A DNA stretch of 24,000 bases, taken from the NCBI GenBank assembly GCA_965247715.1, contig CBDFHS010000005.1, positions 54,113 through 78,112 of the forward strand. The letters run 5' to 3'. Within the stretch, counting starts at the first letter, position 1, and every line of letters begins with the position of its first letter. The position numbers and the translations under genes were made by a program. Source of the DNA: Nakamurella sp. Its GTDB lineage: Bacteria; Actinomycetota; Actinomycetes; Mycobacteriales; Nakamurellaceae. The notes below the pieces were generated by a model. The model saw only the letters and a program-made list of their open reading frames with translations, had not been told where the DNA came from and did not search any database. Of this stretch, positions 1-20,388 are shown piece by piece.

Positions 1-867
1 GCCGGTCGGCTGGCCGGCCTAGCCGACCGGTTCGCCGACGACGTACTGATCGTCATGCGCGTGTACGTCGAGAAGCCCCGTACCCGCCTTGGCTGGAAGG
101 GGATGGTCAGCGACCCCAGGCTGGATGGCTCCGATGACCTCGGCGGTGGCCTGCGGATGTCGCGGCAGCTGATGGTCGATATCGCCGACCGGGGCGTGCC
201 GGTGGCCTGCGAGTTCCTCGACCCGGTGCCGCACCGCTACCTGTCCGATGCAGTGTCCTGGAGCTCGATCGGGGCACGCACGGTGCAGAGCCCGGTGCAC
301 CGGCAGCTCGCCAGCGGCCTGCACTCCCCTGTGGGGCTCAAGAATGCCACCAGTGGCCAGGTAGAGGACGCGATCGACGCGATTCTCACTGCGGCTCACG
401 GACACGTCTTCCCTGGTATCACCGAGGACGGCCAGGCGGCTGTCGTCTCCACGGCCGGCAACCCGGATTGTCACCTGGTCCTGCGCGGCGGCAGCACCGG
501 GCCCAACTACGGACCCAAGCACGTCGGACGGGCCCTGGACCTGCTCGCCGCCGCCGGTCTGCCCCCGCGGCTGTTCATCGACGCCAGTCACGGAAATTGC
601 GGCAAGGACCACCGCCGACAGCCGCAGGTGGTCGCGGACGTCGCGGCCCAGATCAGCGGCGGGCAGCACGGCATCGCGGGGGTAATGCTGGAGAGCTTCC
701 TGACCGCGGGCCGGCAGGACCTCGTCCTCGGCCGGGCCGACCGGCTCACTTTCGGTCAGAGCGTCACGGACGCCTGCATCGGCTGGGACGAGACGGCCCA
801 GCTCGTCGAGCAGCTCGCCACAGCCTCCTTCCGCCGCTCGGCCCAGCGGGCCCCGCTGGCTGCTTAG
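1..867 (+). CDS. DAHP synthase, class I-alpha (AroG/F/H-like); 5' end lies outside the window
   Basis: Frame 1 is open from nt 1 (..DDVLIVMRVYVEKPRTRLGWKGMVSDP..). It is collinear by eye with E. coli AroG from VMRVYFEKPRTTVGWKG through GARTxxSxxHRxLASGL, PVGxKN, CHxxLRGG, IDxSHxN and DACIGW to the C-terminus. Stop TAG at 865-867. Confidence 0.9.
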   Translation, partial: AGRLAGLADRFADDVLIVMRVYVEKPRTRLGWKGMVSDPRLDGSDDLGGGLRMSRQLMVDIADRGVPVACEFLDPVPHRYLSDAVSWSSIGARTVQSPVHRQLASGLHSPVGLKNATSGQVEDAIDAILTAAHGHVFPGITEDGQAAVVSTAGNPDCHLVLRGGSTGPNYGPKHVGRALDLLAAAGLPPRLFIDASHGNCGKDHRRQPQVVADVAAQISGGQHGIAGVMLESFLTAGRQDLVLGRADRLTFGQSVTDACIGWDETAQLVEQLATASFRRSAQRAPLAA

Positions 868-891
868 GACTCAGCCGCTTAGGACTCAACA
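862..891. repeat. 15-bp tandem duplication spanning the DAHP synthase stop codon
   Basis: gcttaggactcagcc (862-876) is followed directly by gcttaggactcaaca (877-891). The first 12 nt are identical, so the TAG stop (865-867) recurs in frame at 880-882. Confidence 0.85.
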
Positions 892-907
892 GAAGGGAGC
901 CCAGTCC

Positions 908-3235
908 ATGAACGAAACCACGACATCGAGGTCGACGCTACCGTTGGCCCACCTCACCGGGACCCCGGTCGGCACAACGCACCGCGTCGCGATCACCGTC
1001 CCGGGTGGTGGCGACTGGCGCCGCCGACAGTATGCCGAGGCCGCCCTGGCGGTGCTGGTACATCGCTACACCGGCGAGACCGACCTGACCATCGCCAGCG
1101 ACGAGCTGGGCGCTGTGCTGCCGGTGCACCTCACCGCGGAGACGAAGGCCTGCGCCCTGCTCAACGCCATCGCCGCGGTGCCCCCGGGCACGCTGGACAA
1201 CCGTAGGGCCGTCGCCGCGGTGGTCGGCGTGGAACCCGCCGGCCCGCTGCCGGCACCACTCACGGTCGTCGTCGGTGACGGCGCTGCGGAGCTGCTGATG
1301 CCCGGTGACGAGTTTGACGACCGGGCGGTCGGGCAGTACGCCCGCCACCTCGTCCGGGTCATGGCGACGCTCTCGGCCGACCCGACTATCTCGGTGGGCG
1401 ACATCGCCCTGCTGACCGACGAGGAGACCCACAAGATCCTGGTCGACTGGAACATCACCGACGAGGACGTGCCGCCGGCCTTCTTCCACGAGATCATCGC
1501 CGACATTGCGGCGCGCACCCCGGACACCGTGGCGGTGGCCTCGCCCGGGGGCACGTTGACGTTCGGGGAGCTGGACCGGTGCGCCAACCAGTTGGCGCAC
1601 CGGCTCGCCGGGTTGGGCGCCCACCCGCACGACCGGATCGCGACCTGTTTCCCGCGCGGCCCGGAGAGCCTGATCGCCCAGCTGGCCTGCTTCAAGGCCG
1701 GAGCCGCCGCGGTTCTGCTCGATCCGGACTTCCCGGTGGACCGCCTCCGGTACATGATCGAGGACGCCGGCTCGGTGGTCGCCCTGACAATGGCCGAGCA
1801 TGAGCCGAAGCTGTACGGAATCTGCCCGGTCGTGCCGCTGGACACCGACGGCTGGCGCTCCGAGCCGGAGACCCCGGTCAACGAGCCGGTCACCGCGGAC
1901 GACCTCATCCACGTCTGCTACACCTCGGGTTCCACCGGAATGCCCAAAGCCGTCCTGGTCCGCCACGGTGCCGCCCGCAACCTCATCTACAGCATGCGCA
2001 AGGTGTTGGGCATAACGAGCGAGTCGCGCGGCACCTGGCTCGCCGCGCCCGGCTACGGCATGGTCGAGGTTGAGTGCTTCTCCGTGCTCGCGGCCGGTGC
2101 CCCGGTGCAGATCCCGGAGCCGCACGTGGTGACCTCGCCAGTCTGGTTGCGCGACTGGCTGGTGGCCGAGCGGATCACCCACACCTTGCTGATGAAGGCG
2201 ATGGCCGAGCGGCTGTGGACCCTGCCGTGGCCGGCGGACACGGCGTTGCAGAACATCCGCATCTGCGGGGAGCGGGTGCAGTCGTGGCCGCCGGCCGCAC
2301 TGCCCTTCCGGGTCTTCAACCTGTACGGCTCGGCTGAGGCCACGGTCGTGGCGACCTGCGACATCACCGGCCTCGGGCAGGAGCTCGGCGAACACGGGCG
2401 GGCGGTGGAGCTGCCGCCCATCGGCCGGCCGCTGCACAACGTCAAGACGTACGTCCTCGACGAGCGTCTGCGCCCCGTGCCTCCGGGCGTGGTCGGGGAG
2501 ATCTTTGTGGCCGGTGCCAGCCTGTCGGAGGGCTACCTCAACCAGCCGGCCGCGACTGCCGAGAAGTGGCTTGCCAATCCGATGGACCCGGTCCGGTACC
2601 CCGTCCTGTACCGCACCGGGGACATGGCCCGGTACTGGGCGGACGGCAACATCGAAATCGTCGGGCGGGCTGACAACCAGGTGAAGGTCCGCGGCAATCG
2701 GGTACACCTCGGCGAGATCGAAGTGGCCCTGGCCGCCCAGCCGGGCGTGCACCAGGCGGCAGTGCTAGCCAAGAAGGACGACGACGGCGACACCCGACTG
2801 GTGGCCTATCTGGAGCCGGAGGGCGGCGCCCGGATCGTCGTCCGGGAGATCCGCAGCGCCCTGCGGGACCGGCTGCCGTCCTTCATGATTCCGGTGGCCT
2901 ACATCGTCGGCGTCTTCCCGACCAGCACTAATGGCAAGATCGACCGCAAGACGCTGCCCGAGCCGCCGCGCTCGCGCCCGGATGTGGGCAGCGCGTATCA
3001 GGAGCCGCGCAACCCGATCGAGGAGCAACTGCACCTGTTGTGGACATCCACCCTGGACCTGGAGGGCATCGGGGTGCTGGACAACTTCTTCGAACTGGGT
3101 GGCGACTCGCTACGGGCCGCGACCCTGACAGCGAAGATCCAGGCGTTCTTCCGGGTCGACATCACAATCGACGACCTGTTCGACGAGGCCAGCATCGAGC
3201 GGATGGCCCTGACCGTCGGAGCCGCCCTGCGTTGA
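908..3235 (+). CDS. NRPS module: vestigial C-terminal half of a condensation domain, adenylation domain, peptidyl carrier protein (C*-A-T), 775 aa
   Basis: ATG at 908 with GAAGGGAG 8 nt upstream. A-domain cores: YTSGSTGMPKA (A3), NLYGSAEAT (A5), YRTGDMARY (A7), GRADNQVKVRGNRVHLGEIE (A8), NGKIDRK (A10). PCP motif FFELGGDSLRA. The first ~175 aa resemble only the distal half of a C domain (..LLTDEETHKILVDWN); no HHxxxDG motif is present. Confidence 0.9.
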   Translation: MNETTTSRSTLPLAHLTGTPVGTTHRVAITVPGGGDWRRRQYAEAALAVLVHRYTGETDLTIASDELGAVLPVHLTAETKACALLNAIAAVPPGTLDNRRAVAAVVGVEPAGPLPAPLTVVVGDGAAELLMPGDEFDDRAVGQYARHLVRVMATLSADPTISVGDIALLTDEETHKILVDWNITDEDVPPAFFHEIIADIAARTPDTVAVASPGGTLTFGELDRCANQLAHRLAGLGAHPHDRIATCFPRGPESLIAQLACFKAGAAAVLLDPDFPVDRLRYMIEDAGSVVALTMAEHEPKLYGICPVVPLDTDGWRSEPETPVNEPVTADDLIHVCYTSGSTGMPKAVLVRHGAARNLIYSMRKVLGITSESRGTWLAAPGYGMVEVECFSVLAAGAPVQIPEPHVVTSPVWLRDWLVAERITHTLLMKAMAERLWTLPWPADTALQNIRICGERVQSWPPAALPFRVFNLYGSAEATVVATCDITGLGQELGEHGRAVELPPIGRPLHNVKTYVLDERLRPVPPGVVGEIFVAGASLSEGYLNQPAATAEKWLANPMDPVRYPVLYRTGDMARYWADGNIEIVGRADNQVKVRGNRVHLGEIEVALAAQPGVHQAAVLAKKDDDGDTRLVAYLEPEGGARIVVREIRSALRDRLPSFMIPVAYIVGVFPTSTNGKIDRKTLPEPPRSRPDVGSAYQEPRNPIEEQLHLLWTSTLDLEGIGVLDNFFELGGDSLRAATLTAKIQAFFRVDITIDDLFDEASIERMALTVGAALR

Positions 3236-3314
3236 TGACGCCGGCCTTCCGATCCGGTGCGGTGTCTCGGCCGTGAGATTTTCACGATCGACCATGAAGT
3301 GTTCATACCCGATT

Positions 3315-3326
3315 GATGACGTCATC
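3315..3326. promoter_or_regulatory. Perfect 12-bp palindrome GATGACGTCATC in the NRPS-MFS intergenic region; candidate operator
   Basis: Self-complementary over 12/12 nt. It lies in the only AT-richer spacer of the cluster (3236-3499), about 175 nt upstream of the MFS start. Confidence 0.35.
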
Positions 3327-3499
3327 TGTAGGGGTGCGAATCTTGTCCGAACTACGCTGTCGGGGTGTCGGGAAAGCGTCGGCACGAAAGCGTGATCAAG
3401 CCTTTCCAACCCGTGCGATGTCAACCTTCGCGCCCTTTTTCACCGCAGCTGTGGATGCCGACGCCTCAATGATCCCAGAACAATGTGGAAGGAAGGGAA

Positions 3500-4948
3500 A
3501 TGGCTTCTCAAAATGGCGGTCGCCCGCCATTGGCGCTGCTTTGCAGTGCTCAGTTCATGTTGACCCTCGACTTCGCGATCGTGAATGTCGCGCTGCCCGA
3601 GATCAGCCATGGACTGAAGTTCAGCAGCGGCAGCCTGCAGTGGGTGATCGGCGCCTATGCCCTTTTCTTCGGCGGCTTCCTGCTGCTCGGCGGCCGGGCC
3701 GGCGACCTGTTCGGACGTAAGCGGATGTTCGTCGTGGGGCTCGTCATCTTCACACTCGCGTCTCTGATCGGTGGCCTCGCCACCGCGCCGATCATCCTGA
3801 TCGTCGCTAGAGCGGCCCAGGGGTTGTCCGCGGCAGCGGTCTCACCGGCCGTGCTCGCCCTGATCGCCGCCGGGTACACAGACCCGGCGGCCAGAGCCAA
3901 GGCCATGGGCGTCTTCGGCGCGGTTGCGTCGGCCGGTTTCGCCGGCGGAGTGCTCGCCGGTGGCATCCTCACCGAGTACCTCGGCTGGCGCTCGGTCATG
4001 TACGTCAACGTGCCAGTCGGCATCCTGCTGGTGGCTCTGGCCATCCGTAAGCTGGTTCCGGACCACCTCGGCCACCGGGCGCGCCGGGTGGATGTGCCCG
4101 GCGCGGTGCTGGTGACCGCGGCGTTCTGCCTCTTCAGCTACGCCCTCACCGCGGCCTCGGACCGGGGCTGGGGTGCGCCGACGGTCATCTGGCCGATCGT
4201 GGGTGGTAGCGTGCTACTCCTCGCCTTCCTGGCCCTGGAGGTCAGGGTCAAGGAGCCACTGGTCACGCTCAGCATCTTCAAGATCCGTAGTGTCACGGGC
4301 GGCAACGTGATCGCCTTCCTGTCCGGTGGAGTCATGTCGATCTCCACCTTCTGCCTGACCCTCTACATGCAGCAGATCCTGCACTACTCGTCGATCCGTA
4401 CCGGGCTGGCGTTCTTTCCGCAGGCATTGGTGGTCGTCCTGGCCAGCCTCCCGGTGGCCAAGATGACGACGCGGTACGGCCCGCGTCCGGTGCTGGTCGG
4501 TGGCGCGCTGTTCCTGGTGGCCGGTTCCTCGTGGCTGATCCTGGCCGACGGCCCGGGTACCTATCTGAGTCACGTGCTCCCCGGTGGTGTGCTCCTCGGC
4601 TGCGGGGTGACCGTCATGATGATCACCACGGCGTTCGCCGCCACCAGCGGGGTGTCGCCGCAGCACATGGGTCTGGCGTCGGGCCTGTACAACTCCCTAC
4701 GCCAGCTCGGGGTCGGCCTCTGCCTCGCGGTGGCGGTCGCCCTGGCCGGTTTCGGCGGCAGCGGCAGCGATGTGTCCCATTTCCGCACCGCCTTCATTCT
4801 GTCGGCAGTCCTATCCGCGGTCATCGTCGTCTCGGCGGTGCTGATCCCGGGCCGTAAGCCGGCCGCGGCCCCGGTCTCCCCGGTCTCCCCGGTTGGCCCG
4901 GCGTCTTCCCGTCCGGCCCGGGAGCGGGCGGCAGCCGGCACCGAATAG
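3500..4948 (+). CDS. MFS transporter, DHA2 (EmrB/QacA-like, 14-TMS type) drug/metabolite exporter
   Basis: ATG at 3500 preceded by GGAAGGAAGGGAAA; the ORF-track start at 3485 is a GTG inside that RBS. Motif A GRAGDLFGRKRMFVVG is present, with many hydrophobic segments across 482 aa. Confidence 0.85.
   Translation: MASQNGGRPPLALLCSAQFMLTLDFAIVNVALPEISHGLKFSSGSLQWVIGAYALFFGGFLLLGGRAGDLFGRKRMFVVGLVIFTLASLIGGLATAPIILIVARAAQGLSAAAVSPAVLALIAAGYTDPAARAKAMGVFGAVASAGFAGGVLAGGILTEYLGWRSVMYVNVPVGILLVALAIRKLVPDHLGHRARRVDVPGAVLVTAAFCLFSYALTAASDRGWGAPTVIWPIVGGSVLLLAFLALEVRVKEPLVTLSIFKIRSVTGGNVIAFLSGGVMSISTFCLTLYMQQILHYSSIRTGLAFFPQALVVVLASLPVAKMTTRYGPRPVLVGGALFLVAGSSWLILADGPGTYLSHVLPGGVLLGCGVTVMMITTAFAATSGVSPQHMGLASGLYNSLRQLGVGLCLAVAVALAGFGGSGSDVSHFRTAFILSAVLSAVIVVSAVLIPGRKPAAAPVSPVSPVGPASSRPARERAAAGTE
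4871..4894 (+). repeat. 9-bp coding tandem repeat (ccggtctcc x2 plus a partial copy) giving PVSPVSPVG in the MFS C-terminal tail
   Basis: ccggtctcc occurs at 4871-4879 and 4880-4888, then ccggtt. Confidence 0.8.
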
Positions 4949-4964
4949 GCATTGCCCTCCCCGA

Positions 4965-5002
4965 GACAGATCGGCCCCGCCGTCAGGCTGGGTCGATCTG
5001 TC
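4965..5002 (+). terminator. Hairpin downstream of the MFS gene (9-bp stem GACAGATCG/CGATCTGTC, 20-nt loop)
   Basis: Perfect inverted repeat 4965-4973 / 4994-5002, 17 nt after the stop codon. There is no U-tract. Confidence 0.3.
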
Positions 5003-5010
5003 GTGTGCGG

Positions 5011-5031
5011 GGCGGTTCTCGTGGAACCGCC
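5011..5031 (+). terminator. GC-rich hairpin (8-bp stem GGCGGTTC/GAACCGCC, 5-nt loop), I-shaped terminator candidate
   Basis: Perfect inverted repeat 5011-5018 / 5024-5031, directly after the first hairpin. There is no U-tract. Confidence 0.35.
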
Positions 5032-5155
5032 GGCTGTCCGCCGTCGTGGAATCGCGTGCCGGACAGGACTGACAAGTGCTGCTTATCGCGCCTCCATTGC
5101 CCTCCCGGCGGGTCCGACGTAGCGTTTTCGTTGGTAACAATGTAAAGGGAGAGCT

Positions 5156-6403
5156 ATGACCCACATACTCGTGGCCGGCGGCGGCATCGGCGGCCTGGCC
5201 GCTGCGCTGGCAGCCGCCGAGCGCCAACACCACGTCACGGTTCTGGAACGGCAGGACACCTTCGCGGAGTACGGCGCCGGCATCCAGCTGGCGCCGAATG
5301 CGTTCCATGCCCTCGACCGGCTCGGGGTGGGCCAGCTGGTTCGCCGCCGCGCGGTGTTCATCGACGAGTTGCGGCTGATGGACAGTCGCAACGGACGCAA
5401 GCTGGCCGCCCTGCCACTCGGCGAGGCCTACCAGCGGCGGTTCGGCAACCCGTACGCGGTTGTGCACCGCGGCGACCTTTACCTGGCGCTGCTTGACGCG
5501 TGCCGGGCCAACCGGCGCATCGAGCTGCGGCCCGGCACCGCGGTCACCGGGTACCGACAGAGGCCGGACCGGGTCGTCGCTCTGACCGCGGCCGGCGACC
5601 CGGTTGCCGGCACCGCCCTGATCGGCGCGGACGGTCTGCGCTCGGCGGTGCGTGCCCAGCTTGTCGGCGATGGCCGCCCCCGGGTCTCCGGCCACACCAT
5701 CTACCGGTGCGTCATCCCGATGAGCCAGGTCCCGCCGGAGCTGCGCTGGAACGCGGTCACGCTGTGGGCCGGCCCGGGCTGGCACTTCGTGCACTACCCG
5801 ATCGGCAGGGGGGAGTTCCTCAACCTGGCCGCCACCCGCGACGACGGCGCGGAGGCCGAGGTGAGCGGCGTGCCGGTCGACCGGGCGCACGTCTTCGGCC
5901 AGTTCCCGGGTCTGGGGCGCACCGCCCGCCGGCTGCTCGAGCTGGGCGACGGATGGCGGTCCTGGGTGCTCTGTGACCGTGACCCCGGTAACGCCTGGGT
6001 CGACGGACGGGTGGCCCTGCTGGGCGACGCCGCCCACCCGATGCTGCAGTACGCGGCGCAGGGCGCGTGCACGGCCCTCGAGGACGCCGTCGTTCTGGGA
6101 CGCTTCCTGGCCCCCGGCAGCCTGCCGCAAGGCCTGCTTGCGTACGCCGCGCACCGGCGGCACCGCACCGCCCGGATCCAACTGCTGGCCCGGGCCATGG
6201 GTGAGCGGCTCTACCACGCCTGCGGCGCCGAGGCCGACGACCGCGACAGCATGCTGACGGGGCTGACCGAGCCGGACATGCTCGACGCGGTCGCCTGGCT
6301 GCACGGCCCGGAGGCGATCGACGTCGACCCCGCCGGCACGGAGCCGATCGGCTCCGTGCCGGGTGGCCACCCCGTCTCGGTCGGCGTCGGGGGGCGGGGA
6401 TGA
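5156..6403 (+). CDS. FAD-dependent aromatic-ring monooxygenase (salicylate hydroxylase / 3-hydroxybenzoate 6-hydroxylase family)
   Basis: ATG at 5156 after AAAGGGAGAG. Motifs: [18 protein letters not shown] (GxGxxG), [10 protein letters not shown] (DG motif), [24 protein letters not shown] (GD motif). Confidence 0.85.
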
Positions 6404-7641
6404 GCACTCTGCGCTGGCTCACCGCCGGGGAGTCGCACGGAGCCGCGCTGGTGGCGACCCTGGAGGGACTGCCGGCCGGGGTGCCGGTCACCACCGCGGA
6501 CGTCGGCGCCGCGCTTGCCCGCCGCCGCCTGGGCCATGGCCGTGGCGCCCGGATGAGCTTCGAGCGTGACGAGGTCTCCATCGTCGGCGGGGTCAGACAC
6601 GGGCAAACGATCGGCTCGCCGGTCGCCATCGTGGTCGCCAACTCGGAGTGGCCGAAGTGGGAGCAGGTGATGGCGGCCGACCCGGTCCCAGCCGCGATGC
6701 TCAACGGGCTCGCCCGCAACGCGCCGCTGACCCGGCCGCGGCCCGGGCACGCCGACCTGGCCGGCATGCAGAAGTACGGGTTCGGCGACGCCCGGCCGGT
6801 GCTCGAGCGCGCCAGCGCGCGGGAGACGGCGGCCCGGGTGGCGCTGGGCGCGGTCGCGCGCGCCTATCTGTGCGAGACCGTCGGGGTGTGGATCGTCTCG
6901 CACGTCGTCGAGCTCGGCGGTGTCACCTCCCCGGCCGGCCGGTACCCCACCCCGGACGACGAGGGTGCTCTGGACGCCGACCCGGTGCGGTGTCTCGACG
7001 CGGCCGCGAGCAGCGCGATGGTGGCCCGCATCGACCAGGCGCACCGGAGCGGGGAGACCCTGGGTGGTGTCGTGGAGGTGCTGGCGTACCGCGTCCCGGT
7101 GGGGCTGGGCTCCCACGTCCACTGGGACCGCCGCCTCGATGCCCGCCTGGCGGCGGCGTTGATGGGCATCCAGGCGATCAAGGGCGTCGAGGTGGGGGAC
7201 GGGTTTGCTTCCGCGCGGGTGCCGGGCTCCGCCGCCCATGACGAGATCGTGGCGGGGGACGACGGGCTGCGGCGTACCTCCGCGCGTGCCGGTGGCATCG
7301 AGGGCGGCCTGAGCACCGGCGAGCCGCTGCGGGTCCGAGCGGCGATGAAGCCGATCGCCACGGTGCCGCGGGCGCTGGCCACAGTGGACGTGGCGACAGG
7401 AAAGCCGGCGCGCGCCCACCACCAGCGTTCCGACGTGTGTGCCGTGCCGGCCGCAGGCATCGTTGCCGAGGCCATGGTGGCTCTGGTGCTGGCGGACGCG
7501 GTGGCGGAGAAGTTCGGCGGCGACTCGGTCGCCGAGACCCGCCGCAACGTCCAGGGCTACCTGGAGCACCTGGCCGATCCGTGCCGGACGACCTGGGCGC
7601 CGGTGATTCCGGCGCCGGCGCTAGGCGAGAAGAATAGCTAA
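6400..7641 (+). CDS. aroC: Chorismate synthase
   Basis: N-terminus [24 protein letters not shown] is the chorismate synthase signature; further matches at [18 protein letters not shown] and GGxEGG. The start overlaps the upstream stop (ATGA at 6400-6403). Confidence 0.92.
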
Positions 7642-7727: not shown

Positions 7728-9074
7728 ATGACCGCTCCGACACCATGGCTTCACTACTTCGAGACCCGAGTCCCGCTGACCGCCCAGCCGGTCGAGGTCG
7801 CCGCAGGCCTTGCGGGCGCCGGACTGTTCGAGTCGTACGTGGTCTACGAGAGCGGCGGCCAATGGTCCTACGCCGGTGGTGCCCGCGCTGAACTGACCTT
7901 GGACCGCACCGGCGCCAGGCTGCAGCAGACCGGTTGCGCCGACGTCGTCCGCCCCTGGACCGATGAACCCTTGCACTCCGTCGCCGAATTGCTGGATATC
8001 GTGCGGGTGCCGAGCTGGCGGGCGTACGGCTGGGCCGCCTTTGAGCTGTCTTACGCCAAGTCCGGTGACCTCACCCACGCCGGCGAAAGCACCCTGCTGC
8101 ACCTGGTCGTCCCCGAGGCCGAGGTGCGCATCGCGAATGGCTACGCCGACCTACGCGCGGCCACCCAGGAGACCCTCACTCGGCTGCTCGACATCCTCTC
8201 CCACCCGCCGCGCATCCCCGGCTCCGAGCCGACCCCCTTCGACGTGCGCCGGCATGGGGAGGTCACCTACCGCGAGTCCGTGCGGCGCGCGGTCGACGAA
8301 ATCAACCGCGGCGAGCTGCACAAGGTCATCCTGTCCCGGGTCGTTGACGTCGACGAGGACATAGATCTGGTGGGCACCTACCTCGCCGGCCGACGCAGCA
8401 ACAACCCGGCCCGCTCGTTCCTTCTCAAGCTGGGCGGTGAGGAGGCCGTCGGGTTCAGCCCGGAGATCGTCGTCAGCGTCTCACCGGGCGGCCGGGTGAT
8501 CAGCCAGCCACTGGCCGGCACCCGTGCTCTGACGACGGACGAGCACGCCAACAAGATCCTGCGGGCGGACCTGTTCGGCTCCGCCAAGGAGATTTACGAG
8601 CATGCCATCTCGGTGAAGGTTGGTACGGACGAGCTGGGTGACGTCTGCGAGTCCGGCTCGATCGAAGTCCCGGAGTTCATGGGCATCCGCGAGCGCGGCA
8701 GCGTCCAGCACCTAGCTTCGCAGGTCGCCGGGCAGCTGGCCCCCGGGATGCAGGCGTGGGATGCGTTCGGTGCGGTCTTTCCCGCGGTCACCGCCTCCGG
8801 GGTGCCCAAGGCCGCGGCGTACACCTCGATCCGCCGGCACGAGGCCGAGGGCCGCGGGTTGTACAGCGGCGCGGTGATGACGATCGACCACGCCGGGGAG
8901 ATGGATGCGGCCCTGGTGTTGCGCAGCGCCTATCGCAAGAACGGCCGTACCTGGTTGCGGGCCGGTGCGGGCATCGTCGGACAGTCCACCCCGGAGCGCG
9001 AGTACGAGGAGACCTGCGAAAAGCTAGACAGCGTCGCCCGGTACCTGGTACCGGCCCGTTCCGGGAGTGCGTGA
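7728..9074 (+). CDS. Chorismate-utilising MST enzyme, MbtI/Irp9-type salicylate synthase (isochorismate synthase not excluded)
   Basis: 448 aa, ATG at 7728 after GAAAGGA. The N-terminal block YVVYESGGQWSYAGGARAELTLD resembles MbtI [22 protein letters not shown]. Also GELHKVILSR (Lys199), GFSPE and PLAGTR. Size matches MbtI/Irp9 rather than EntC/DhbC. Confidence 0.75.
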   Translation: MTAPTPWLHYFETRVPLTAQPVEVAAGLAGAGLFESYVVYESGGQWSYAGGARAELTLDRTGARLQQTGCADVVRPWTDEPLHSVAELLDIVRVPSWRAYGWAAFELSYAKSGDLTHAGESTLLHLVVPEAEVRIANGYADLRAATQETLTRLLDILSHPPRIPGSEPTPFDVRRHGEVTYRESVRRAVDEINRGELHKVILSRVVDVDEDIDLVGTYLAGRRSNNPARSFLLKLGGEEAVGFSPEIVVSVSPGGRVISQPLAGTRALTTDEHANKILRADLFGSAKEIYEHAISVKVGTDELGDVCESGSIEVPEFMGIRERGSVQHLASQVAGQLAPGMQAWDAFGAVFPAVTASGVPKAAAYTSIRRHEAEGRGLYSGAVMTIDHAGEMDAALVLRSAYRKNGRTWLRAGAGIVGQSTPEREYEETCEKLDSVARYLVPARSGSA

Positions 9075-10120
9075 TGCGCGTCGACGACGTCTATCTGGCC
9101 GGTGTCGGCAGTTACCTGCCGGCGGCGGTGCCCGTCGTACAGGCGGTCGACAACGGCTGGTGGGACGACGACGCGGCCACCGCGTCCGGCATCACCGCGG
9201 TCCGGGTGGCCGGCGACGTTCCGGCGCCCGAGCTGGCGGTCCGTGCCGCCGCGGTCGCCGTGCGGCGCAGCGGCCACGACGCGGACGACTTCGGCGCCGT
9301 CCTGCACAGCAGCACGTACCACCAGGGCCCTGACGGCTGGTCCGCCCCCCACTACGTGCTGCGGCACGCCCTGAACCGGCCGATCAGCGCGGTCGAGGTG
9401 CGGCAGGGGTGCCTCGGCATGATCGCCGGGCTACAGATGGCGGCACACCTCGTGACCGCGGACCGCGGTCACGAGGCTGTCCTGCTGACCGCCGGCGACA
9501 ACTTCGGTGCACCGCTGGTCGACCGGTGGCGGGCCTCACGTCTGTTCGTGCTCGCCGACGCGGGGGCCGCCGTGGTGGTCTCCCGGCGTGCCGGCTTCGC
9601 CCGGGTCCGGTCGTTCGCGGCCGTGTCCGACCCGCGGATGGAGGAGCTGCACCGTGGCGGCGAGGCGCTGTTCCCGCCCGGGGTCACCGTCGGCCGCGGC
9701 CTGGACTTCGAGGAGCGTACCGGGTACTGGCGGCGGCAGTGGGCCACGGGCGCCGCACCGCCGATGGGCAACTTCGGCGACTGCGTGGCCGATGCCGCGC
9801 AGCAGGCCCTGGACGAGGCCGGCATCGAGAAGGTCGCCCGGGTTTGCCACGTCGGGTACGCCCGTGGGCCGCTGCAGGCGATGCTGCTGGACCCGCTCGG
9901 CATCGACGCCGAGCAGGGCGTTTGGGACATCACCCGGGAGATCGGCCACGCCGGCGCCGCGGACCCGTTCCTCGCGTTGGAGCGCCTGTGGACCGACGGC
10001 TCGGTGACACCGGGCGATCACCTGCTGCTGATCGGCGCCACACCCGGCATGGAGGCCGGCTGTGCGGTCATCGAGATCATCGCTTCTTACCAGCCCGAAG
10101 GAGGGTCGGCACATGCTTGA
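9074..10120 (+). CDS. KAS III (FabH)-like acyltransferase, 348 aa
   Basis: ATG at 9074 overlaps the upstream TGA (GTGATG). Cys113 in VRQGCLGM aligns with FabH Cys112, and His259 lies in VCHVGYA. The FabH GNTSAAS position reads GHAGAAD (His292). The ORF-track start at 8756 is an in-frame extension through the upstream gene. Confidence 0.8.
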   Translation: MRVDDVYLAGVGSYLPAAVPVVQAVDNGWWDDDAATASGITAVRVAGDVPAPELAVRAAAVAVRRSGHDADDFGAVLHSSTYHQGPDGWSAPHYVLRHALNRPISAVEVRQGCLGMIAGLQMAAHLVTADRGHEAVLLTAGDNFGAPLVDRWRASRLFVLADAGAAVVVSRRAGFARVRSFAAVSDPRMEELHRGGEALFPPGVTVGRGLDFEERTGYWRRQWATGAAPPMGNFGDCVADAAQQALDEAGIEKVARVCHVGYARGPLQAMLLDPLGIDAEQGVWDITREIGHAGAADPFLALERLWTDGSVTPGDHLLLIGATPGMEAGCAVIEIIASYQPEGGSAHA

Positions 10121-11765
10121 CGGATGCACACCCTGGCCGGCGGAGCTCGCCGACCGTTACCGCAGCGCGGGATGGTGGCGGGGCGTCACCCTCGATGAGC
10201 TGCTCCGGTCCTGGGCACTGTCCTACGGTGACCGGGTCGCCCTGGTCAGCGGATCGCAACGGATCACCTACCGCGACCTCGACGCCCGGGTCGACCGGAT
10301 GGCCGCGGGCCTGCTGCGGCACGGGGTCGGGCCCGGCGACCGGATCCTATTGCAGCTGCCGAACGTACCGGAATTCGTCATCGTCGCGTTCGCCCTTTTT
10401 CGGGCCGGCGCCATGCCGGTGTTCTCGCTGGCCTCGCACCGTGCCAACGAGATCGGTCACCTGATCGAGCTGTCCGGTGCGGTGGGGTACGTCCTGCCCG
10501 GTGTGCACCGCGGCTTCGACCACCCGGAGTTGGCCCGGCGGATGCTGCGCGAGCAGCCCACCCTGCGTCAGGCCTTCGTGCTGGGCGGCGCCGACGGCCT
10601 GCTGGCCCTGGAGGAGGTCGACGCGGATCCCGTCCAGGGTCCCACCCCGGACCCCTGCGACGTGGCGTTCTTCCTGCTCTCCGGCGGGACCACAGCGCTG
10701 CCTAAACTGATCCCGCGCACCCATGACGACTATGCGTACCAGCTGCGCATCGTGGCGCAGCTGTGCGAGCTCGGCGCGGACGACGTCTACTTGGCCGCCC
10801 TGCCGGTGGAGTTCAACTTCACCTGGGGCTGCCCCGGGGTGCTCGGCACCCTGTCGAGGGGGGGAACGGTCGTGCTGGCCGCGGATCCCTCACCGGAGCA
10901 CTGCTTCGACCTGATCGCCCGGGAACGGGTCACGGTCACCTCCCTGGTCCCTACGGTCGCGCAGCTCTGGGTCGAGGCGGCCGAGTGGGCCGGGCGGGAC
11001 CTGTCAACGCTGCGCCTGGTGCAGATCGGCGGCGCCAAGCTGCAGTCCCACCTGGCCGCCCGGGTCGGGCCTGCACTGGGCTGCCGGTTGCAGCAAGTGT
11101 TCGGGATGGCCGAGGGGCTGTTGTCGATGACGCGCCGCGACGACGACCCGCGCTCGGTGCTCGAGACTCAGGGACGGCCGATCTCACCGGCCGACGAGAT
11201 CCGGGTGGTCGACGAGCACGACGCCCCCGTGCCGGACGGTCAGGTCGGTGAACTGCTCACCCGGGGCCCGTACACCTTGCGCGGGTACTACCGGGCGCCG
11301 GAGCACAACCGGCGGGCGTTCACCGCGGACGGCTTCTACCGTACCGGCGACCTGGCCCGGATCACGGCCCACGGCGACCTGGTCATCGAGGGCCGGCTCA
11401 AGGACGTGGTCATCCGCGGCGGTGACAAGATCGCCGCCGGCGAGGTGGAGAGCCATCTGCTGGCCCAGCCGCAGATCAGCCGAGCTGCCGTGGTGGCGGT
11501 GCCGGACGACTTCCTCGGCGAGCGCACCTACGCCTTCCTGGTATGCCCTGGCGATCGGCCCACGCTGCCGGACCTCAAACGCGCTCTGCACGCGCGCGGC
11601 CTCGCGGAGTTCAAGCTGCCGGACCGGGTCGAGCACGTCCGGGCGCTGCCGCTGACTCCGCTCGGCAAGGTCGATAAGAAGGTTCTCGCGGCCGCCGCTG
11701 CGGATCCGTCCGTGCCACGCGACTGGGCGCCCGCCGCAGAACCGGCCGCCCTCCAGAAGGGATGA
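10113..11765 (+). CDS. Aryl-acid adenylating enzyme (EntE/DhbE/MbtA family), salicylate-type specificity residues
   Basis: ATG at 10113 after GAAGGAGGG, overlapping the upstream gene by 8 nt. TPWPAELADRYRSAGWW resembles the EntE N-terminus. Motifs: SGGTTALPKLIPRTH, QVFGMAEGL, YRTGDLA, GRLKDVVIRGGDKI, LGKVDKK. The pocket residues read Asn235-Phe236...Cys240 (FNFTWGCPG). Confidence 0.88.
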   Translation: MLDGCTPWPAELADRYRSAGWWRGVTLDELLRSWALSYGDRVALVSGSQRITYRDLDARVDRMAAGLLRHGVGPGDRILLQLPNVPEFVIVAFALFRAGAMPVFSLASHRANEIGHLIELSGAVGYVLPGVHRGFDHPELARRMLREQPTLRQAFVLGGADGLLALEEVDADPVQGPTPDPCDVAFFLLSGGTTALPKLIPRTHDDYAYQLRIVAQLCELGADDVYLAALPVEFNFTWGCPGVLGTLSRGGTVVLAADPSPEHCFDLIARERVTVTSLVPTVAQLWVEAAEWAGRDLSTLRLVQIGGAKLQSHLAARVGPALGCRLQQVFGMAEGLLSMTRRDDDPRSVLETQGRPISPADEIRVVDEHDAPVPDGQVGELLTRGPYTLRGYYRAPEHNRRAFTADGFYRTGDLARITAHGDLVIEGRLKDVVIRGGDKIAAGEVESHLLAQPQISRAAVVAVPDDFLGERTYAFLVCPGDRPTLPDLKRALHARGLAEFKLPDRVEHVRALPLTPLGKVDKKVLAAAAADPSVPRDWAPAAEPAALQKG

Positions 11766-12031
11766 TCGACATGACCAGACCATTCGCCGGCCCGCCGGCT
11801 GCGGACGACCTGCGCCGCGTCGTCGCGGACCTGATCGGCGCGGACCCGGAGGGGATCGCCGGGGACGCCAACCTGGTCTTCCTGGGGCTCGGCTCGCTGG
11901 AGATGATGCGGCTGGCCACCCGGTGGCGCCGCGAGGGGTACACAGTGCCCTTCGCCGAACTGGCCACCGAACCCACCCTTGACCGGTGGGCCGCCCTGCT
12001 GGCCGCGAACTGGGTCGGTGGTACGCCATGA
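11762..12031 (+). CDS. Stand-alone aryl/acyl carrier protein (89 aa)
   Basis: ATGA overlap with the ligase stop. Phosphopantetheine-attachment-like motif FLGLGSLEMM. Size and position match ArCPs that partner EntE-type ligases. Confidence 0.75.
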   Translation: MIDMTRPFAGPPAADDLRRVVADLIGADPEGIAGDANLVFLGLGSLEMMRLATRWRREGYTVPFAELATEPTLDRWAALLAANWVGGTP

Positions 12032-13512
12032 GCCGGTTGCTGGTCAGCGGTGGCCACCTCTACCCGGCCGACGCCGCCGCCTCGGTCGTACCCGACGGCG
12101 CGGTCCTGGTCGACGGCGACCGGATCGTCGCGGCCGGCCCGGACGCGCAGGTGCGGGCGGCCATCCCGGCCGAGTGGCAGGCCACCCTGCGCACCATCGA
12201 CGCACGTGGGTCGCTGATCTTGCCCGGCTTCGTCAACGCCCACTGGCACGACCTGTTCGCCCTGCGGTTCCCCTTCAAGGGTGCCCTGCGCCCGCCGGTG
12301 GACCGCGGGGACCGGGCCGCGTTCATGGCTCTGGGGGGTGACCTGACCCAGATCTCCACCGTCTTCGACTCGTTCACCAACCGGCTCGCCCAGCTGGCCC
12401 CGGACGAGGCGCTGGCGATCGCCCGCTACTCGATGTGGACCCAGCTGCGGTCGGGCGTCACGACCCTCGGGGACGTCGGCTCGTACAACCGGCCGGAGGC
12501 CCTGGCCGCCGCGGCCCGGGACCTGGGCATGCGGGCGATGCTCAGCACCTGGGCGGGTGACACCGTGTGCGCGCCGGGGGAGTCGCGTTTCCGGCGCACC
12601 CGGGACGCGGACGCGGTCCTGCAGCCCATCGAGGCGCTGCTGGCCGCGTGCGCGGCCGATCCCGGCGGAACCGTGCGGGCTCGCCCCACCGCGGTGTACG
12701 GGATCAACATGAGCGACGAACTCGGCGCCGGCTTCCGGCAGCTGATCGACCGGTACGACGTGCCGTTCGCCACCCATGTCGGCGCTCTGCGCCACGAGGC
12801 GGAGGTGTCCCGCGCCTACTACGGCACCACCCCGGTGCGCCGCCTGGCAGACCTGGGTTTGCTCTCGAAGCGCTTCATGGCGGTCCACTGCGCGTTCGCG
12901 GACGCCGACGAGCGCAAGTTGCTGCTGGCCGCGAATGTCCACATCAGCCACTCGCCGGCAAAGTACGGCCCGGCCGGGGAGTCGACCCTGTCGGAGACCC
13001 GGGCGATTCCGGAGCTGCGTCGCGATGGTCTGGACGTCTCCCTGTCCACCGACGGCGCGGCCATGCCGCTGGGTGGCATGGCGGAGGCGATGCGGGCAGC
13101 CTGGCATACCTACACCGAAATGTACGCCGACCCCACGGAGCTGCTGCCCACCGGTGCCCTAGCCATGGCCACCGCCGTGGCGGCCCGCGGGCTCGACTGG
13201 GACGACGAAATCGGCAGCATCGAGGTGGGCAAGCAGGCCGACCTCGTCATAGTACCGGCCGACGACTGGCGGTACCTGCTCAACCCGCGCCCGCTGGAGG
13301 GATTCCTGACCCTGGGCGGATCCGCGGACGTCGACACGGTGCTAGTCGGCGGCAAGGTGGTGGTGTCGGGCGGTCGATGCACCAACATGGACGAGTCGGT
13401 CCTGGAAGCTGACTACCTGCGCGCGTTAGGCACCTTCTCGGTGCGGTGCCTGGGCGTCGACCCCGACGTGGTCGCCACACACCTGCGCCGGCGTGCGGGC
13501 GGGGGTAGCTGA
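12028..13512 (+). CDS. Amidohydrolase-superfamily metalloenzyme (494 aa), candidate heterocycle-forming cyclase
   Basis: ATGA overlap with the carrier-protein stop (12028-12031). It has an N-terminal beta-sandwich-type lead (VLVDGDRIVAAG) followed by PGFVNAHWHD, the HxH metal motif. Confidence 0.8.
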   Translation: MSRLLVSGGHLYPADAAASVVPDGAVLVDGDRIVAAGPDAQVRAAIPAEWQATLRTIDARGSLILPGFVNAHWHDLFALRFPFKGALRPPVDRGDRAAFMALGGDLTQISTVFDSFTNRLAQLAPDEALAIARYSMWTQLRSGVTTLGDVGSYNRPEALAAAARDLGMRAMLSTWAGDTVCAPGESRFRRTRDADAVLQPIEALLAACAADPGGTVRARPTAVYGINMSDELGAGFRQLIDRYDVPFATHVGALRHEAEVSRAYYGTTPVRRLADLGLLSKRFMAVHCAFADADERKLLLAANVHISHSPAKYGPAGESTLSETRAIPELRRDGLDVSLSTDGAAMPLGGMAEAMRAAWHTYTEMYADPTELLPTGALAMATAVAARGLDWDDEIGSIEVGKQADLVIVPADDWRYLLNPRPLEGFLTLGGSADVDTVLVGGKVVVSGGRCTNMDESVLEADYLRALGTFSVRCLGVDPDVVATHLRRRAGGGS

Positions 13513-13513
13513 G

Positions 13514-14284
13514 ATGGCTCAGCGAGTAGCCCTGGTCACCGGGGCCGCCGGGGGGATCGGCGACGCCGTCGCGCGGGCCCTGGCATCGCAGGGGACCGCG
13601 GTGGCCGTCCTGGACGCCCGCGCCGACCTGCTGGACCTGCTCGTCAAGGACCTCACCGCGGCGGGCCATCGGGTCCGTGGCTACCCGGTGGACGTGCGCT
13701 CGACCGCCGAGGTCGACGAGGCTGTCGGGCGGGCCGAGCTCGAACTCGGCCCCCTCGACAGCCTGGTCAACGCGGCCGGCGTGCTACGGATCGGCGCGGC
13801 CGCGTCGTTCACCGACGAGGACTGGGATCTCACCTTCGCGGTCAACACCACGGGGGTATTCCATGTCAGCAGGGCAGTGTCGGCCCGGATGATCCCACGC
13901 CGCCGGGGGGTCATCGTCACGGTTGCCTCGAACGCGTCACGTACCCCGAGGTGGCACATGGCCGCCTACTCGGCGTCCAAGGCGGCGGCCACGGCGTTCA
14001 CCAAGAACCTGGGCCTAGAGCTGGCCGAGTACGGCATCCGGTGCAACGTGGTCGCACCTGGCTCCACCGACACACCGATGCTGACCTCGCTCTGGACCGG
14101 CGACGACGCCCGACGCGCCTCCATCGAAGGCACCCCGGATACATTTCGCGTCGGCATCCCGTTGGGCCGTCTGGCTCGGCCGGAGGACGTCGCGGACGCG
14201 GTGCTGTTCCTGCTCTCCGACCAGGCCACGCACATCACCATGCACGACCTCACCATCGACGGCGGCGCAGCCCTGGGCCACTGA
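13514..14284 (+). CDS. SDR, 2,3-dihydro-2,3-dihydroxybenzoate dehydrogenase family (EntA/DhbA-like); here predicted DHHA dehydrogenase
   Basis: ATG at 13514, 2 nt after the upstream TGA. Motifs: VALVTGAAGGIGDAV (TGxxxGxG), NAAG and YSASKAA (YxxxK). Confidence 0.85.
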   Translation: MAQRVALVTGAAGGIGDAVARALASQGTAVAVLDARADLLDLLVKDLTAAGHRVRGYPVDVRSTAEVDEAVGRAELELGPLDSLVNAAGVLRIGAAASFTDEDWDLTFAVNTTGVFHVSRAVSARMIPRRRGVIVTVASNASRTPRWHMAAYSASKAAATAFTKNLGLELAEYGIRCNVVAPGSTDTPMLTSLWTGDDARRASIEGTPDTFRVGIPLGRLARPEDVADAVLFLLSDQATHITMHDLTIDGGAALGH

Positions 14285-14342
14285 CCACCCGGTCACGGCA
14301 CCACCTACCCCGATCTTCCGCCAAGTGAACGGAGGCACCCCC

Positions 14343-14990
14343 ATGGCCATCCCGGCGATCGCGCCGTACCCGATGCCGACCGAGGACGAGCTACCGGTGA
14401 ACGTCGCACCCTGGGCGATCCGACCGGACCGAGCGATGCTGCTCGTCCACGACATGCAGAACTATTTCCTCGGACCGTTCGCGCCGGACCGGGCGCCACT
14501 CACCGAGCTGGTGCGCAACGTCTCCGCGCTGCGGAAGGGGTTCAGCGCGGCCGGCGCCCCGATCTCGTACACCGCGCAGCCCGGGGGCATGAGCGACGAG
14601 CAGCGCGGCCTGCTCAAGGACTTCTGGGGGGTCGGCATGACTACCGACCCGGATCAGCGGAGGATCCTAGCGGAGGTCCAGCCGACCGGTGCGGACACGG
14701 TGCTAACCAAGTGGCGGCCGAGTGCGTTCTGCCGCACGGATCTGCTGTCGCTGATGCAGCGGCACGGCCGTGACCAGCTGGTCATCTGCGGCGTCTACGC
14801 ACACGTCGGCATCCTGATGACCGCACACGAGGGCTTCTCGAATGACATCGAGACCTTCGTGGTTGCCGACGCGGTCGCGGACTTCACCGCTGAGTACCAC
14901 CGGATGGCCCTCACCTACGCCTCCGCCCGGTGTGCGGTCACGGTGTCCACCGCGGCGGCGCTGCGAATGCTGGAAGGACCCCTGCCGTGA
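14343..14990 (+). CDS. Isochorismatase-family hydrolase (PhzD/EntB N-domain-like, no fused ArCP)
   Basis: ATG at 14343, 7 nt after GGAGG. MAIPAIAPYPMP...RAMLLVHDMQNYF parallels EntB MAIPKLQAYALP...AALLIHDMQDYF. It is 215 aa, so it carries the hydrolase domain only. Confidence 0.88.
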   Translation: MAIPAIAPYPMPTEDELPVNVAPWAIRPDRAMLLVHDMQNYFLGPFAPDRAPLTELVRNVSALRKGFSAAGAPISYTAQPGGMSDEQRGLLKDFWGVGMTTDPDQRRILAEVQPTGADTVLTKWRPSAFCRTDLLSLMQRHGRDQLVICGVYAHVGILMTAHEGFSNDIETFVVADAVADFTAEYHRMALTYASARCAVTVSTAAALRMLEGPLP

Positions 14991-16918
14991 CCGGAGCACA
15001 GCTTCTTGATCGGCTCCTGCTGCCCGGAGCGCCGCCGTTCGCGCTGCTGCACCGCCGCGGCGCCACCGGCGACGACCGGCTTGACATCGTCATCGGCACG
15101 GTCACCGAGCCGGCCCAGATCGCCGATATCGTCCTGCCTGGACCCGGGGACCGCGACCGCCACGAGGTGCTCGCGGTCCTGCCGTACCGGCAGATCGCGG
15201 AGCGGGGGTTCGCCTGCGTCGACGACGGGGCGCCGTTGCTGGCCATGACCATCACGGAGCAGGCCACCCTGGACCGAGCCGAAGCGATGAGCCGGCTGCC
15301 GGACGACCCGGTCGAGCTGACTGGCGGCGGCTTTGACCTCGACGACGAGCAGTACGCCGCCACCGTGCGGGAGGTGGTCGCCGAGGAGATCGGTCGGGGC
15401 ACCGGTGCTAACTTTGTCCTCAAGCGCACCTTCACCGCGACCGTGGAGGGCTGGTCCGCCCGTACCGCCCTGGCCTGCTTCCGCAGGCTGCTCGGCCGCG
15501 ATCACGGCTCGCACTGGACGTTCGTGGTGCACACCGGCGACCGCACGCTGGTGGGGGCCTCCCCGGAGCGGCACATCAGCCTCGCGGGGGGCACCGCAGT
15601 GATGAACCCGATCAGTGGCACGTACCGCTATCCCGCGGACGGCCCGAACCTGCCGGACGTGCTGTCCTTCCTGGCCGACGACAAGGAAGCCAACGAGCTG
15701 TACATGGTTCTGGACGAGGAGCTCAAGATGATGGGCCGGGTGTGCGAGCTCGGCGGACGCGCGGTGGGCCCGTACCTCAAGTCGATGGCCCAGGTGGCGC
15801 ACACGGAGTACTTCATCGAGGGACGCACCGACCTGGACGTGCGGGACGTGCTGCGTGACACTATGTTCGCCCCCACGGTCACCGGTGGCCCGGTGGAGAG
15901 CGCCTGCCGGGCGATCAGCCGCTTCGAGCCGGAGGGGCGCGGCTACTACGCCGGTGTGGTCGCGCTCATCGGACGCGATCGGGCCGGGGAGCGCGCGCTG
16001 GACTCCGCGATCGTGATCCGGACCGCGGAGGTCGACGCCGTCGGCCGGCTGCGCCTGGCGGTCGGCGCGACCCTCGTGAGGGACTCCGACCCGGCCGCAG
16101 AGGCGGCCGAGACTGTGGCCAAGGCTTCCGGGCTGCTGGACGCGCTGCGGGGCGCCCCGGCCGCGTCGCACCGGGCCGCGCCGACGGCCTCGCTCGGGGC
16201 CCACCCCGCGATCCGGCGCATGCTGGCGCGGCGTAACGAGTCGCTCGGCGAGTTCTGGCTGGAGGCCCCGCAGACGCGGCACCGCCGGGTGGCCGACCTG
16301 CTCCACCGGCGGATCCTGGTGATCGACGCGGAGGACAACTTCACCCTGATGGCCAGGCACATGATCTCGTCCCTCGGCTGCGTGGTGCACGTCCGCCGGT
16401 TCGACGAGCTGTACGATCTGCGGGCCTACGACCTGGTGATTGTGGGGCCGGGTCCTGGGGACCCGACGGACCGCGCCGACCGCAAGATCGCGTGGTTGCA
16501 GAACGAGACCCGCCGCCTGCTCGAGCTCGGTGTCCCCTTTTTTTCGGTCTGCCTCGGCCACCAGGTTCTCAGCACGGTGCTTAGGTTGCCGATCGTGCGC
16601 AACGCCACCCCCAGCCAGGGGGTGCAGCGCGAGATCGAGGTGTTCGGCCGCCGCGAGCAGGTGGGCTTCTACAACACCTTCTCCGCCCGCTGCGACACCG
16701 ACGAGGTGCCCAGCGTGCTGCGGCCCGGGACGGTCACGGTCAGCCGCGACCGGACGACCGGCGAGGTGTACGCGCTGCGCGGCCCGGGCTTCGCGTCGGT
16801 GCAGTTCCATCCGGTGTCTGTGCTGACCAGGCACGGGGCGGAACTGCTCGGTGAGGTGTTTAGCGATCTGTTGGCCGAGACCGGGTACCCGTCGCCTCCC
16901 CTGCTCGCCGCGGGTTAG
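14987..16918 (+). CDS. Fused MST + class I glutamine amidotransferase enzyme, PhzE-type 2-amino-2-desoxyisochorismate (ADIC) synthase
   Basis: GTG at 14987 in a GTGA overlap with the upstream stop; 643 aa. The N-terminus LLDRLLLPGAPPFALLHRRG is PhzE-like. MST motifs GASPERH and PISGT. The C-terminal GATase has FFSVCLGHQ (Cys522) and VQFHPVS (His608). Confidence 0.85.
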   Translation: MTGAQLLDRLLLPGAPPFALLHRRGATGDDRLDIVIGTVTEPAQIADIVLPGPGDRDRHEVLAVLPYRQIAERGFACVDDGAPLLAMTITEQATLDRAEAMSRLPDDPVELTGGGFDLDDEQYAATVREVVAEEIGRGTGANFVLKRTFTATVEGWSARTALACFRRLLGRDHGSHWTFVVHTGDRTLVGASPERHISLAGGTAVMNPISGTYRYPADGPNLPDVLSFLADDKEANELYMVLDEELKMMGRVCELGGRAVGPYLKSMAQVAHTEYFIEGRTDLDVRDVLRDTMFAPTVTGGPVESACRAISRFEPEGRGYYAGVVALIGRDRAGERALDSAIVIRTAEVDAVGRLRLAVGATLVRDSDPAAEAAETVAKASGLLDALRGAPAASHRAAPTASLGAHPAIRRMLARRNESLGEFWLEAPQTRHRRVADLLHRRILVIDAEDNFTLMARHMISSLGCVVHVRRFDELYDLRAYDLVIVGPGPGDPTDRADRKIAWLQNETRRLLELGVPFFSVCLGHQVLSTVLRLPIVRNATPSQGVQREIEVFGRREQVGFYNTFSARCDTDEVPSVLRPGTVTVSRDRTTGEVYALRGPGFASVQFHPVSVLTRHGAELLGEVFSDLLAETGYPSPPLLAAG

Positions 16919-20345: not shown

Positions 20346-20351
20346 TGAGAA

Positions 20352-20385
20352 GAGCGGAATGACGGGAGACTGTCACGTTCCGTTC
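20352..20385 (+). ncRNA. Group II intron domain V (catalytic hairpin)
   Basis: GAGCGGAAUGACGG-GAGA-CUGUCA-CG-UUCCGUUC: an 8-bp lower stem containing the AGC triad, a 2-nt bulge (20376-20377), a 6-bp upper stem and a GNRA tetraloop GAGA. Confidence 0.9.
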
Positions 20386-20388
20386 TGT

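Follow-up and report, generated by a model that had tools for sequence, protein, structure and literature searches.

A KAS III-like protein of Nakamurella sp. is most likely a NatS/CbxB-type aryl transferase of benzoxazole biosynthesis

Two Streptomyces gene clusters for benzoxazoles provide the closest described precedents for the gene examined here. In the caboxamycin cluster of Streptomyces sp. NTK 937, deletion of cbxB, which encodes a protein resembling 3-oxoacyl-ACP synthase III (KAS III; ACP, acyl carrier protein), abolishes caboxamycin (PMC5481532). The genes cbxBCDE together with a salicylate source suffice for the formation of benzoxazoles, and CbxB has been proposed to join the salicyl unit and 3-hydroxyanthranilate (3-HAA) (PMC5445379). 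Its counterpart in the nataxazole cluster of Streptomyces sp. Tu 6176 is NatS (PDB 7VYU), and among further members of this enzyme type, knockout of myeG abolishes mycemycins (PMC5867642). Here, we analyzed a stretch of 24,000 nucleotides from Nakamurella sp. (assembly GCA_965247715.1, contig CBDFHS010000005.1, positions 54,113 to 78,112 of the forward strand), referred to as the window, and in particular a KAS III-like gene at 9074..10120 on the plus strand. We find that this gene, which codes for 348 amino acids, is an orthologue of natS and cbxB and encodes an enzyme of a known type with a thiolase fold. Its product very probably takes over a salicyl group that is bound to a carrier protein and passes it to 3-HAA, forming no carbon-carbon bond.

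The KAS III-like gene and its product

The assignment draws on Pfam, phmmer, AlphaFold2, Foldseek, and residue conservation. Both Pfam domains of the family, ACP_syn_III and ACP_syn_III_C, match the protein, and the models specific for FabH remain far below their cut-offs (TIGR00747, 49.6 bits versus 292.1; NF006829, 47.9 bits versus 249). Among PDB sequences, phmmer retrieves 7vyu as the best match (E 4e-119), followed by 9z38 and ChlB3 (both about 5e-74), DpsC (7e-45), CerJ (2e-40), and Mycobacterium tuberculosis FabH (1e-11). The AlphaFold2 model, built from an alignment of 54 sequences, has a mean predicted local distance difference score (pLDDT) of 93.5 and a predicted template modeling score (pTM) of 0.92. 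Structure prediction, part of a check that had been suggested, shows the thiolase/KAS III fold. The first-ranked Foldseek match is 7vyu, "Crystal structure of NatS," with template modeling (TM) scores of 0.93/0.96 and 54% identity; ChlB3, CerJ, and DpsC follow at TM scores of 0.86 to 0.91, and FabH, PqsD, and OleA lie near 0.75.

All features of the gene that had been described from the DNA were confirmed by reading the DNA directly. The ATG at 9074-9076 shares its A with the TGA stop codon (9072-9074) of the salicylate synthase gene upstream, giving an overlap of 1 nucleotide, and the TGA stop codon at 10118-10120 lies beyond the ATG of the ligase gene at 10113, giving an overlap of 8 nucleotides. 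The codons of Cys113 (TGC, 9410-9412), His259 (CAC, 9848-9850), and His292 (CAC, 9947-9949, within the motif GHAGAAD) are likewise where they had been placed, and that of Asp297 is at 9962-9964. Because a GGGAG is found 6 nucleotides upstream of the ATG and because the N terminus MRxxDxYLAG is common to the protein and its homologues, we consider the annotated start to be correct. The antisense open reading frames (ORFs) within the gene were taken as the usual artefacts of high-GC DNA.

To place the active-site residues, we used a MAFFT alignment of 120 homologues together with the FabH of the source genome itself, and an hhalign comparison of the family profile with the same FabH. That protein is a canonical FabH (TIGR00747, 310.7 bits, above the cut-off), reads C...THQAN...GNTSSAS at the relevant positions, and is encoded elsewhere in the genome, beside a malonyl transacylase-like gene. 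Both alignments agree that Cys113 falls on the FabH cysteine and His292 on the catalytic asparagine (GHAGAAD versus GNTSSAS). Hence, the original prediction that a histidine stands in place of the decarboxylation asparagine is borne out, since neither alignment restores the asparagine. The claim that His259 corresponds to His244 of FabH holds only by an indirect route. In both direct alignments with FabH it is one column off, whereas the phmmer alignment to DpsC pairs it with the histidine of the DpsC sequence lpHMGW, which is recognisably the histidine of the FabH motif PHQAN. We therefore regard the two residues as equivalent by transitivity.

The replacement of asparagine by histidine is the defining, previously published hallmark of a whole clade and no oddity of this gene. 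In the MAFFT alignment, all 120 homologues have Cys113 and His292, 116/120 have Asp297 (the rest have Glu), and 118/120 have His259. Across the 80 genome loci discussed below, the counts are 80 for Cys113, 80 for His292, 79 for Asp297, and 79 for His259. Given this conservation, the pattern is not due to chance. By sequence comparison, Cys113, His292, and Asp297 are assigned as the Cys-His-Asp triad known from KAS III-like acyltransferases of the CerJ/ChlB3/DpsC clade, and all close PDB sequence matches found by phmmer carry GHxGxxD where the protein has GHAGAAD. The triad is Cys113-His296-Asp301 in ChlB3, with equivalent residues in CerJ, and has been validated by mutation in both enzymes; the CerJ variants C116A/S and H295N are dead (PMC9573744). 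In DpsC and OxaC the triads are Ser118-His297-Asp302 and Ser113-His292-Asp297, respectively (PMC12308425). The Nakamurella protein thus has His292 where the Cys-His-Asn triad of FabH has Asn, and Cys113 where loading acyltransferases of the DpsC/OxaC type have a serine nucleophile. On the basis of its triad and the family scores, we rejected its identification as a canonical FabH.

The equivalent of His244 is kept in the NatS/CbxB group and in DpsC but is Met in ChlB3 and 9z38. This residue also varies in a second KAS III-like gene that lies upstream of the window and codes for a Ser-type paralogue (described below). Comparison of motifs puts a Phe at this position (TPFVG versus LPHMG in DpsC), and automatic alignment puts Thr or Pro at the columns of the His259 region. 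Judging from the sequences, such variation may relate to acceptor chemistry. In a tree of Cys-type and Ser-type paralogues with FabH as the outgroup, which was confined to these sequences and left out NatS, ChlB3, CerJ, DpsC, and BomK, the two types form separate clades.

Conservation of the gene neighborhood

The genes of the window cluster are co-directional, and from the salicylate synthase on, their order is that of the caboxamycin genes cbxA-B-C-D-E-(F)-G-H-I (PMC5481532). The cbxA-like salicylate synthase (7728..9074, plus strand; TIGR03494 salicyl_syn, 451 bits versus a cut-off of 325) is predicted to supply the aryl donor. The KAS III-like gene is followed by a cbxC/natL1-like aryl-AMP ligase (10113..11765, plus strand; AMP-binding Pfam domains), whose best PDB match is the salicylate-AMP ligase 5wm2 (E 8e-187) and which probably activates salicylate and loads the ACP. 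Next come a free-standing, cbxD-like acyl/aryl carrier protein of 89 amino acids (11762..12031, plus strand; PF00550 PP-binding, E 4e-10) and an amidohydrolase of the NatAM/CbxE type (12028..13512, plus strand; PDB 6sj0, E 3e-180), the predicted ring-closing enzyme. Alignment with 6sj0 shows that its His287 and Lys312 are the conserved equivalents of His290 and Lys315 of NatAM. Three further genes on the plus strand are assigned to 3-HAA supply, with the same roles as cbxG/H/I (PMC5481532): an EntA-like dehydrogenase (13493-14284), an isochorismatase (14325-14990), and a PhzE-like 2-amino-2-deoxyisochorismate (ADIC) synthase with a glutamine amidotransferase (GATase) domain (14930-16918). For these three, the coordinates are those of the longest ORFs with unrefined starts.

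A genome-wide scan yielded 80 loci with relatives of the KAS III-like protein at 52 to 79% identity, from Krasilnikovia, Streptosporangium, Nonomuraea, Embleya, Umezawaea, Herbidospora, Nocardia, Streptomyces, and others. Neighbors were counted by tblastn with the window proteins against these loci. The ligase and the ACP adjoin the KAS III-like gene in 78/80 loci, the amidohydrolase is present in 75/80, and each of the three 3-HAA genes in 73/80. A match to the salicylate synthase was found in 65/80 loci, some of these being weak (27 to 30% identity) and falling on the ADIC synthase gene. The order KAS III-like gene, ligase, ACP, amidohydrolase, and 3-HAA genes is kept in 73 to 78 of the 80 loci and across many actinomycete genera. 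One locus from S. halstedii (L066) has the exact cbxR plus cbxA-I layout, including a divergent Streptomyces antibiotic regulatory protein (SARP) gene and a class II DAHP synthase (DAHP, the 7-phosphate of 3-deoxy-D-arabino-heptulosonate) between the amidohydrolase and the dehydrogenase, and its KAS III-like protein is 60% identical to that of the window. The closest versions of the gene occur in Krasilnikovia (Micromonosporaceae).

Proposed acyl transfer to 3-HAA and its alternatives

The genetics on the orthologues lead us to propose the following mechanism, for which the essentiality of the enzyme and the sufficiency of four genes are taken from the work on those orthologues (PMC5481532, PMC5445379). 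Salicylate would be made by the salicylate synthase, adenylated by the aryl-AMP ligase, and loaded onto the 89-amino-acid carrier protein. Cys113, activated by His292 and Asp297, would then take over the salicyl group as a thioester in a ping-pong reaction, as in CerJ and ChlB3, and pass it on to 3-HAA from the three downstream genes, which, presumably as the free acid, would attack the thioester. Finally, the NatAM-like amidohydrolase would dehydrate the adduct to give the 2-(2-hydroxyphenyl)benzoxazole-4-carboxylate (caboxamycin) scaffold. The earlier proposal that the enzyme delivers an aryl group, bound to a carrier protein, to 3-HAA before cyclization is therefore supported by the structural match to NatS, the triad, the synteny, and the cbxB genetics, while the activity itself is what we infer from these; for NatS, CbxB, BomK, and MymG, the same model had already been put forward in the literature.

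Some considerations weigh against this assignment. In the literature searched, we found no biochemical assay of NatS or CbxB, so that the transfer reaction ascribed to this sub-clade is based on genetics and analogy. In addition, the His244 equivalent His259 is retained as it is in DpsC, an enzyme to which both condensing and transferase activities have been attributed, and for this reason sequence taken by itself formally leaves room for a decarboxylative role. The published proposals, moreover, specify an amide, not an ester, as the product of CbxB (PMC5445379), of BomK, which is reported as an amide-forming ketosynthase-like enzyme (PMC10006239), and of MymG/MyeG (PMC5867642).

The last point concerns which atom of 3-HAA would be acylated, and here we moderately favor O-acylation, that is, formation of an ester. 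In the NatL2/NatAM system, the genuine intermediate is the ester, from which the amide arises spontaneously as a shunt product that is not processed further (PMC7204872). Since NatAM uses the ester and the window amidohydrolase is a close homologue of NatAM with the same catalytic His and Lys, an ester would seem the more suitable substrate for ring closure in this cluster as well. The alternative, in which an enzyme of the same family uses the same donor but acylates the nitrogen, so that the amidohydrolase would cyclize the amide N-salicyloyl-3-HAA, is the original proposal for CbxB, BomK, and MymG and retains a substantial, though minor, probability. It gains weight from the 59% identity between the window protein and MyeG, the mycemycin enzyme (P0038 in our homologue set), and loses weight with the behavior of the NatL2/NatAM amide and with the resemblance of the window amidohydrolase to NatAM. 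As the amide forms spontaneously from the ester, an amide detected in extracts could be a rearrangement product. Ester versus amide is a question that this gene shares with all members of the family.

Taken further, and tentatively, the NatS/CbxB-type enzymes might be dedicated O-acyltransferases that convert the ACP thioester into a labile salicyl ester of 3-HAA by means of a clade-specific His259/His292 pair. They would then be the carrier-dependent counterpart of the ATP-dependent NatL2, and the amides described for the clade would be rearrangement artefacts. Together with the second, Ser-type transferase, the enzyme might build an undescribed decorated benzoxazole, the gene set for which is found in about 30 actinomycete genomes. 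We give this extended proposal somewhat less than an even chance.

A role as a carrier-to-carrier shuttle similar to ChlB3 appears improbable. The salicyl group would in that case be moved from the free ACP to another carrier, such as the peptidyl carrier protein (PCP) domain of a 775-amino-acid protein with adenylation (A) and PCP domains that is encoded in the cluster (908-3235), and 3-HAA would not be acylated. Such a second carrier domain does exist here, and ChlB3 ranks second among the structural matches (TM about 0.87 to 0.92) and shares the Cys-His-Asp triad (PMC9573744). However, the cassette of KAS III-like protein, ligase, ACP, and amidohydrolase is found in 75 to 78 of the 80 loci, whereas only about 15 have a true orthologue of the A-PCP protein in their flanks. 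Caboxamycin-type clusters have a single carrier, and yet cbxB is essential and cbxBCDE is sufficient (PMC5481532, PMC5445379). Moreover, ChlB3 has Met where the NatS/CbxB clade keeps His259. Since most orthologous clusters lack the second carrier, we rejected shuttling as the principal role.

A genuine condensing or priming ketosynthase of the FabH or DpsC kind, which would perform a decarboxylative Claisen reaction between an acyl starter and a malonyl extender, is very unlikely despite the KAS III fold and Pfam domains and the retention, as in DpsC, of both Cys113 and the His244 equivalent, considering that the decarboxylation Asn is His in all 120 homologues, that the FabH models score 48 to 50 bits against cut-offs of 249 to 292, that a canonical FabH is encoded separately in the genome, next to a malonyl transacylase-like gene, that domain scans of the window revealed no polyketide synthase (PKS), malonyl, or ketosynthase-chain length factor (KS-CLF) genes, and that the products of orthologous clusters have no ketide-derived carbon at this junction (PMC5481532).

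The main gain of the analysis is, accordingly, one of annotation, as pipelines call the protein "3-oxoacyl-ACP synthase III," whereas it almost certainly acts in benzoxazole biosynthesis as an aryl transferase that does not condense. From the cluster, a caboxamycin-like product is predicted for an actinomycete with a small genome. Since a cassette of the cbxBCDE type has been used for combinatorial benzoxazole synthesis, the new orthologues also widen the enzyme toolbox.

The extended cluster and its relation to known systems

Upstream of the caboxamycin-like core, the window holds the 3' part of a class I DAHP synthase gene (1-867), the A-PCP protein, in which a region of about 200 amino acids without a Pfam match precedes the A and PCP domains, a major facilitator superfamily (MFS) exporter (3485-4948), a flavin adenine dinucleotide (FAD) monooxygenase resembling 3-hydroxybenzoate-6-monooxygenase (5156-6403), and a chorismate synthase (6400-7641). 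The chorismate synthase gene overlaps the stop codon of the monooxygenase gene, and a cluster-borne copy is rare, being found within the 10-kb flanks of only 2/80 loci. The second KAS III-like gene codes for 357 amino acids (L006:1174-2247, plus strand; contig positions about 52797-53870) and is located about 0.24 to 1.3 kb upstream of window position 1. In its product, Ser is the nucleophile of a Ser-His-Asp arrangement (AASNGS...GIGHLGPAD), DpsC is the best PDB match (E 1e-40), and orthologues with at least 55% identity, all of them with Ser, are present in 31/80 loci. To judge from its sequence, this protein may serve to load an additional acyl or aryl unit or to attach one, and the gene merits separate attention.

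The core, when combined with the class I DAHP synthase, the A-PCP protein, the MFS exporter, and the FAD enzyme (window 1-6403) plus the upstream Ser-type gene, forms an extended set that recurs in Krasilnikovia, Nonomuraea, Umezawaea, Spirillospora, Actinokineospora, and Herbidospora and partly in several Streptomyces. This recurrence suggests an uncharacterized family of decorated benzoxazoles.

On the other side lies a group II intron (18566-20425, plus strand), at which the GC content falls from about 0.70 to 0.61-0.65; this fall marks the boundary of the cluster. Rfam matches to domains D1-D4 (18566-18688, 102.9 bits) and to domain V/VI (20350-20425, 57.9 bits) flank a reverse transcriptase (RT)/maturase ORF (19050-20345). 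A DDE transposase ORF on the minus strand (20305-21594), which matches its Pfam model only from position 74 on, lies directly against the 3' end of the intron and overlaps it. Possibly, the intron has inserted in or beside an insertion sequence (IS) element. The window ends 2 bases before the end of the contig of 78,114 bases. The assembly comprises 4.6 Mb in 15 contigs with an estimated completeness of 98.8%, which is small for an actinomycete whose closest gene versions are in Krasilnikovia.

Compared with the known systems, the window cluster most resembles that of caboxamycin, with which it shares the order cbxA-B-C-D-E followed by G-H-I and the predicted substrates salicylate and 3-HAA. 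Unlike the cbx cluster, it contains a class I instead of a class II DAHP synthase and adds the chorismate synthase, the FAD monooxygenase, the A-PCP protein, and the second KAS III-like gene. Because of these differing and added genes, what the cluster finally makes is probably not caboxamycin itself but a decorated relative of it.

NatS is the best match in both sequence and structure. It shares the Cys, the His259 equivalent, and the His and Asp of the GHxGAAD motif with the window enzyme, and its gene, too, lies in a benzoxazole cluster that encodes an aryl-AMP ligase, an ACP, and NatAM. In contrast to the enzyme described here, it is thought to handle 6-methylsalicyl rather than salicyl groups, and the nat cluster contains a PaaK-like ligase, NatL2, that has no counterpart in the window. 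BomK (A33853) and MymG/MyeG (mycemycins) belong to the same clade of KAS III-like enzymes and bring together a carrier- or coenzyme A (CoA)-bound aryl acid and an aminobenzoate. The acceptor of BomK is the aryl amine of a preformed benzoxazole and that of MymG is anthranilate, which lacks the ortho-hydroxyl group, so that for these two only an amide can form and ring closure to a benzoxazole does not take place at that bond.

CerJ, ChlB3/ChlB6, and DpsC/OxaC have the same fold, with a nucleophile-His-Asp triad at the same positions, but are only 32 to 36% identical to the window enzyme. They transfer malonyl, 6-methylsalicylic acid (6-MSA), or short acyl groups to sugar hydroxyls or carrier proteins, and the nucleophile in DpsC and OxaC is Ser instead of Cys. 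FabH, finally, has in common with the window enzyme the thiolase fold, a dimer-type architecture, the active-site Cys at the N terminus of the same helix, and the His244 equivalent. The two differ in the change from Asn274 to His292 and in the additional Asp297 of the window enzyme; their sequence identity is 17 to 23%, and the TM score is about 0.75.

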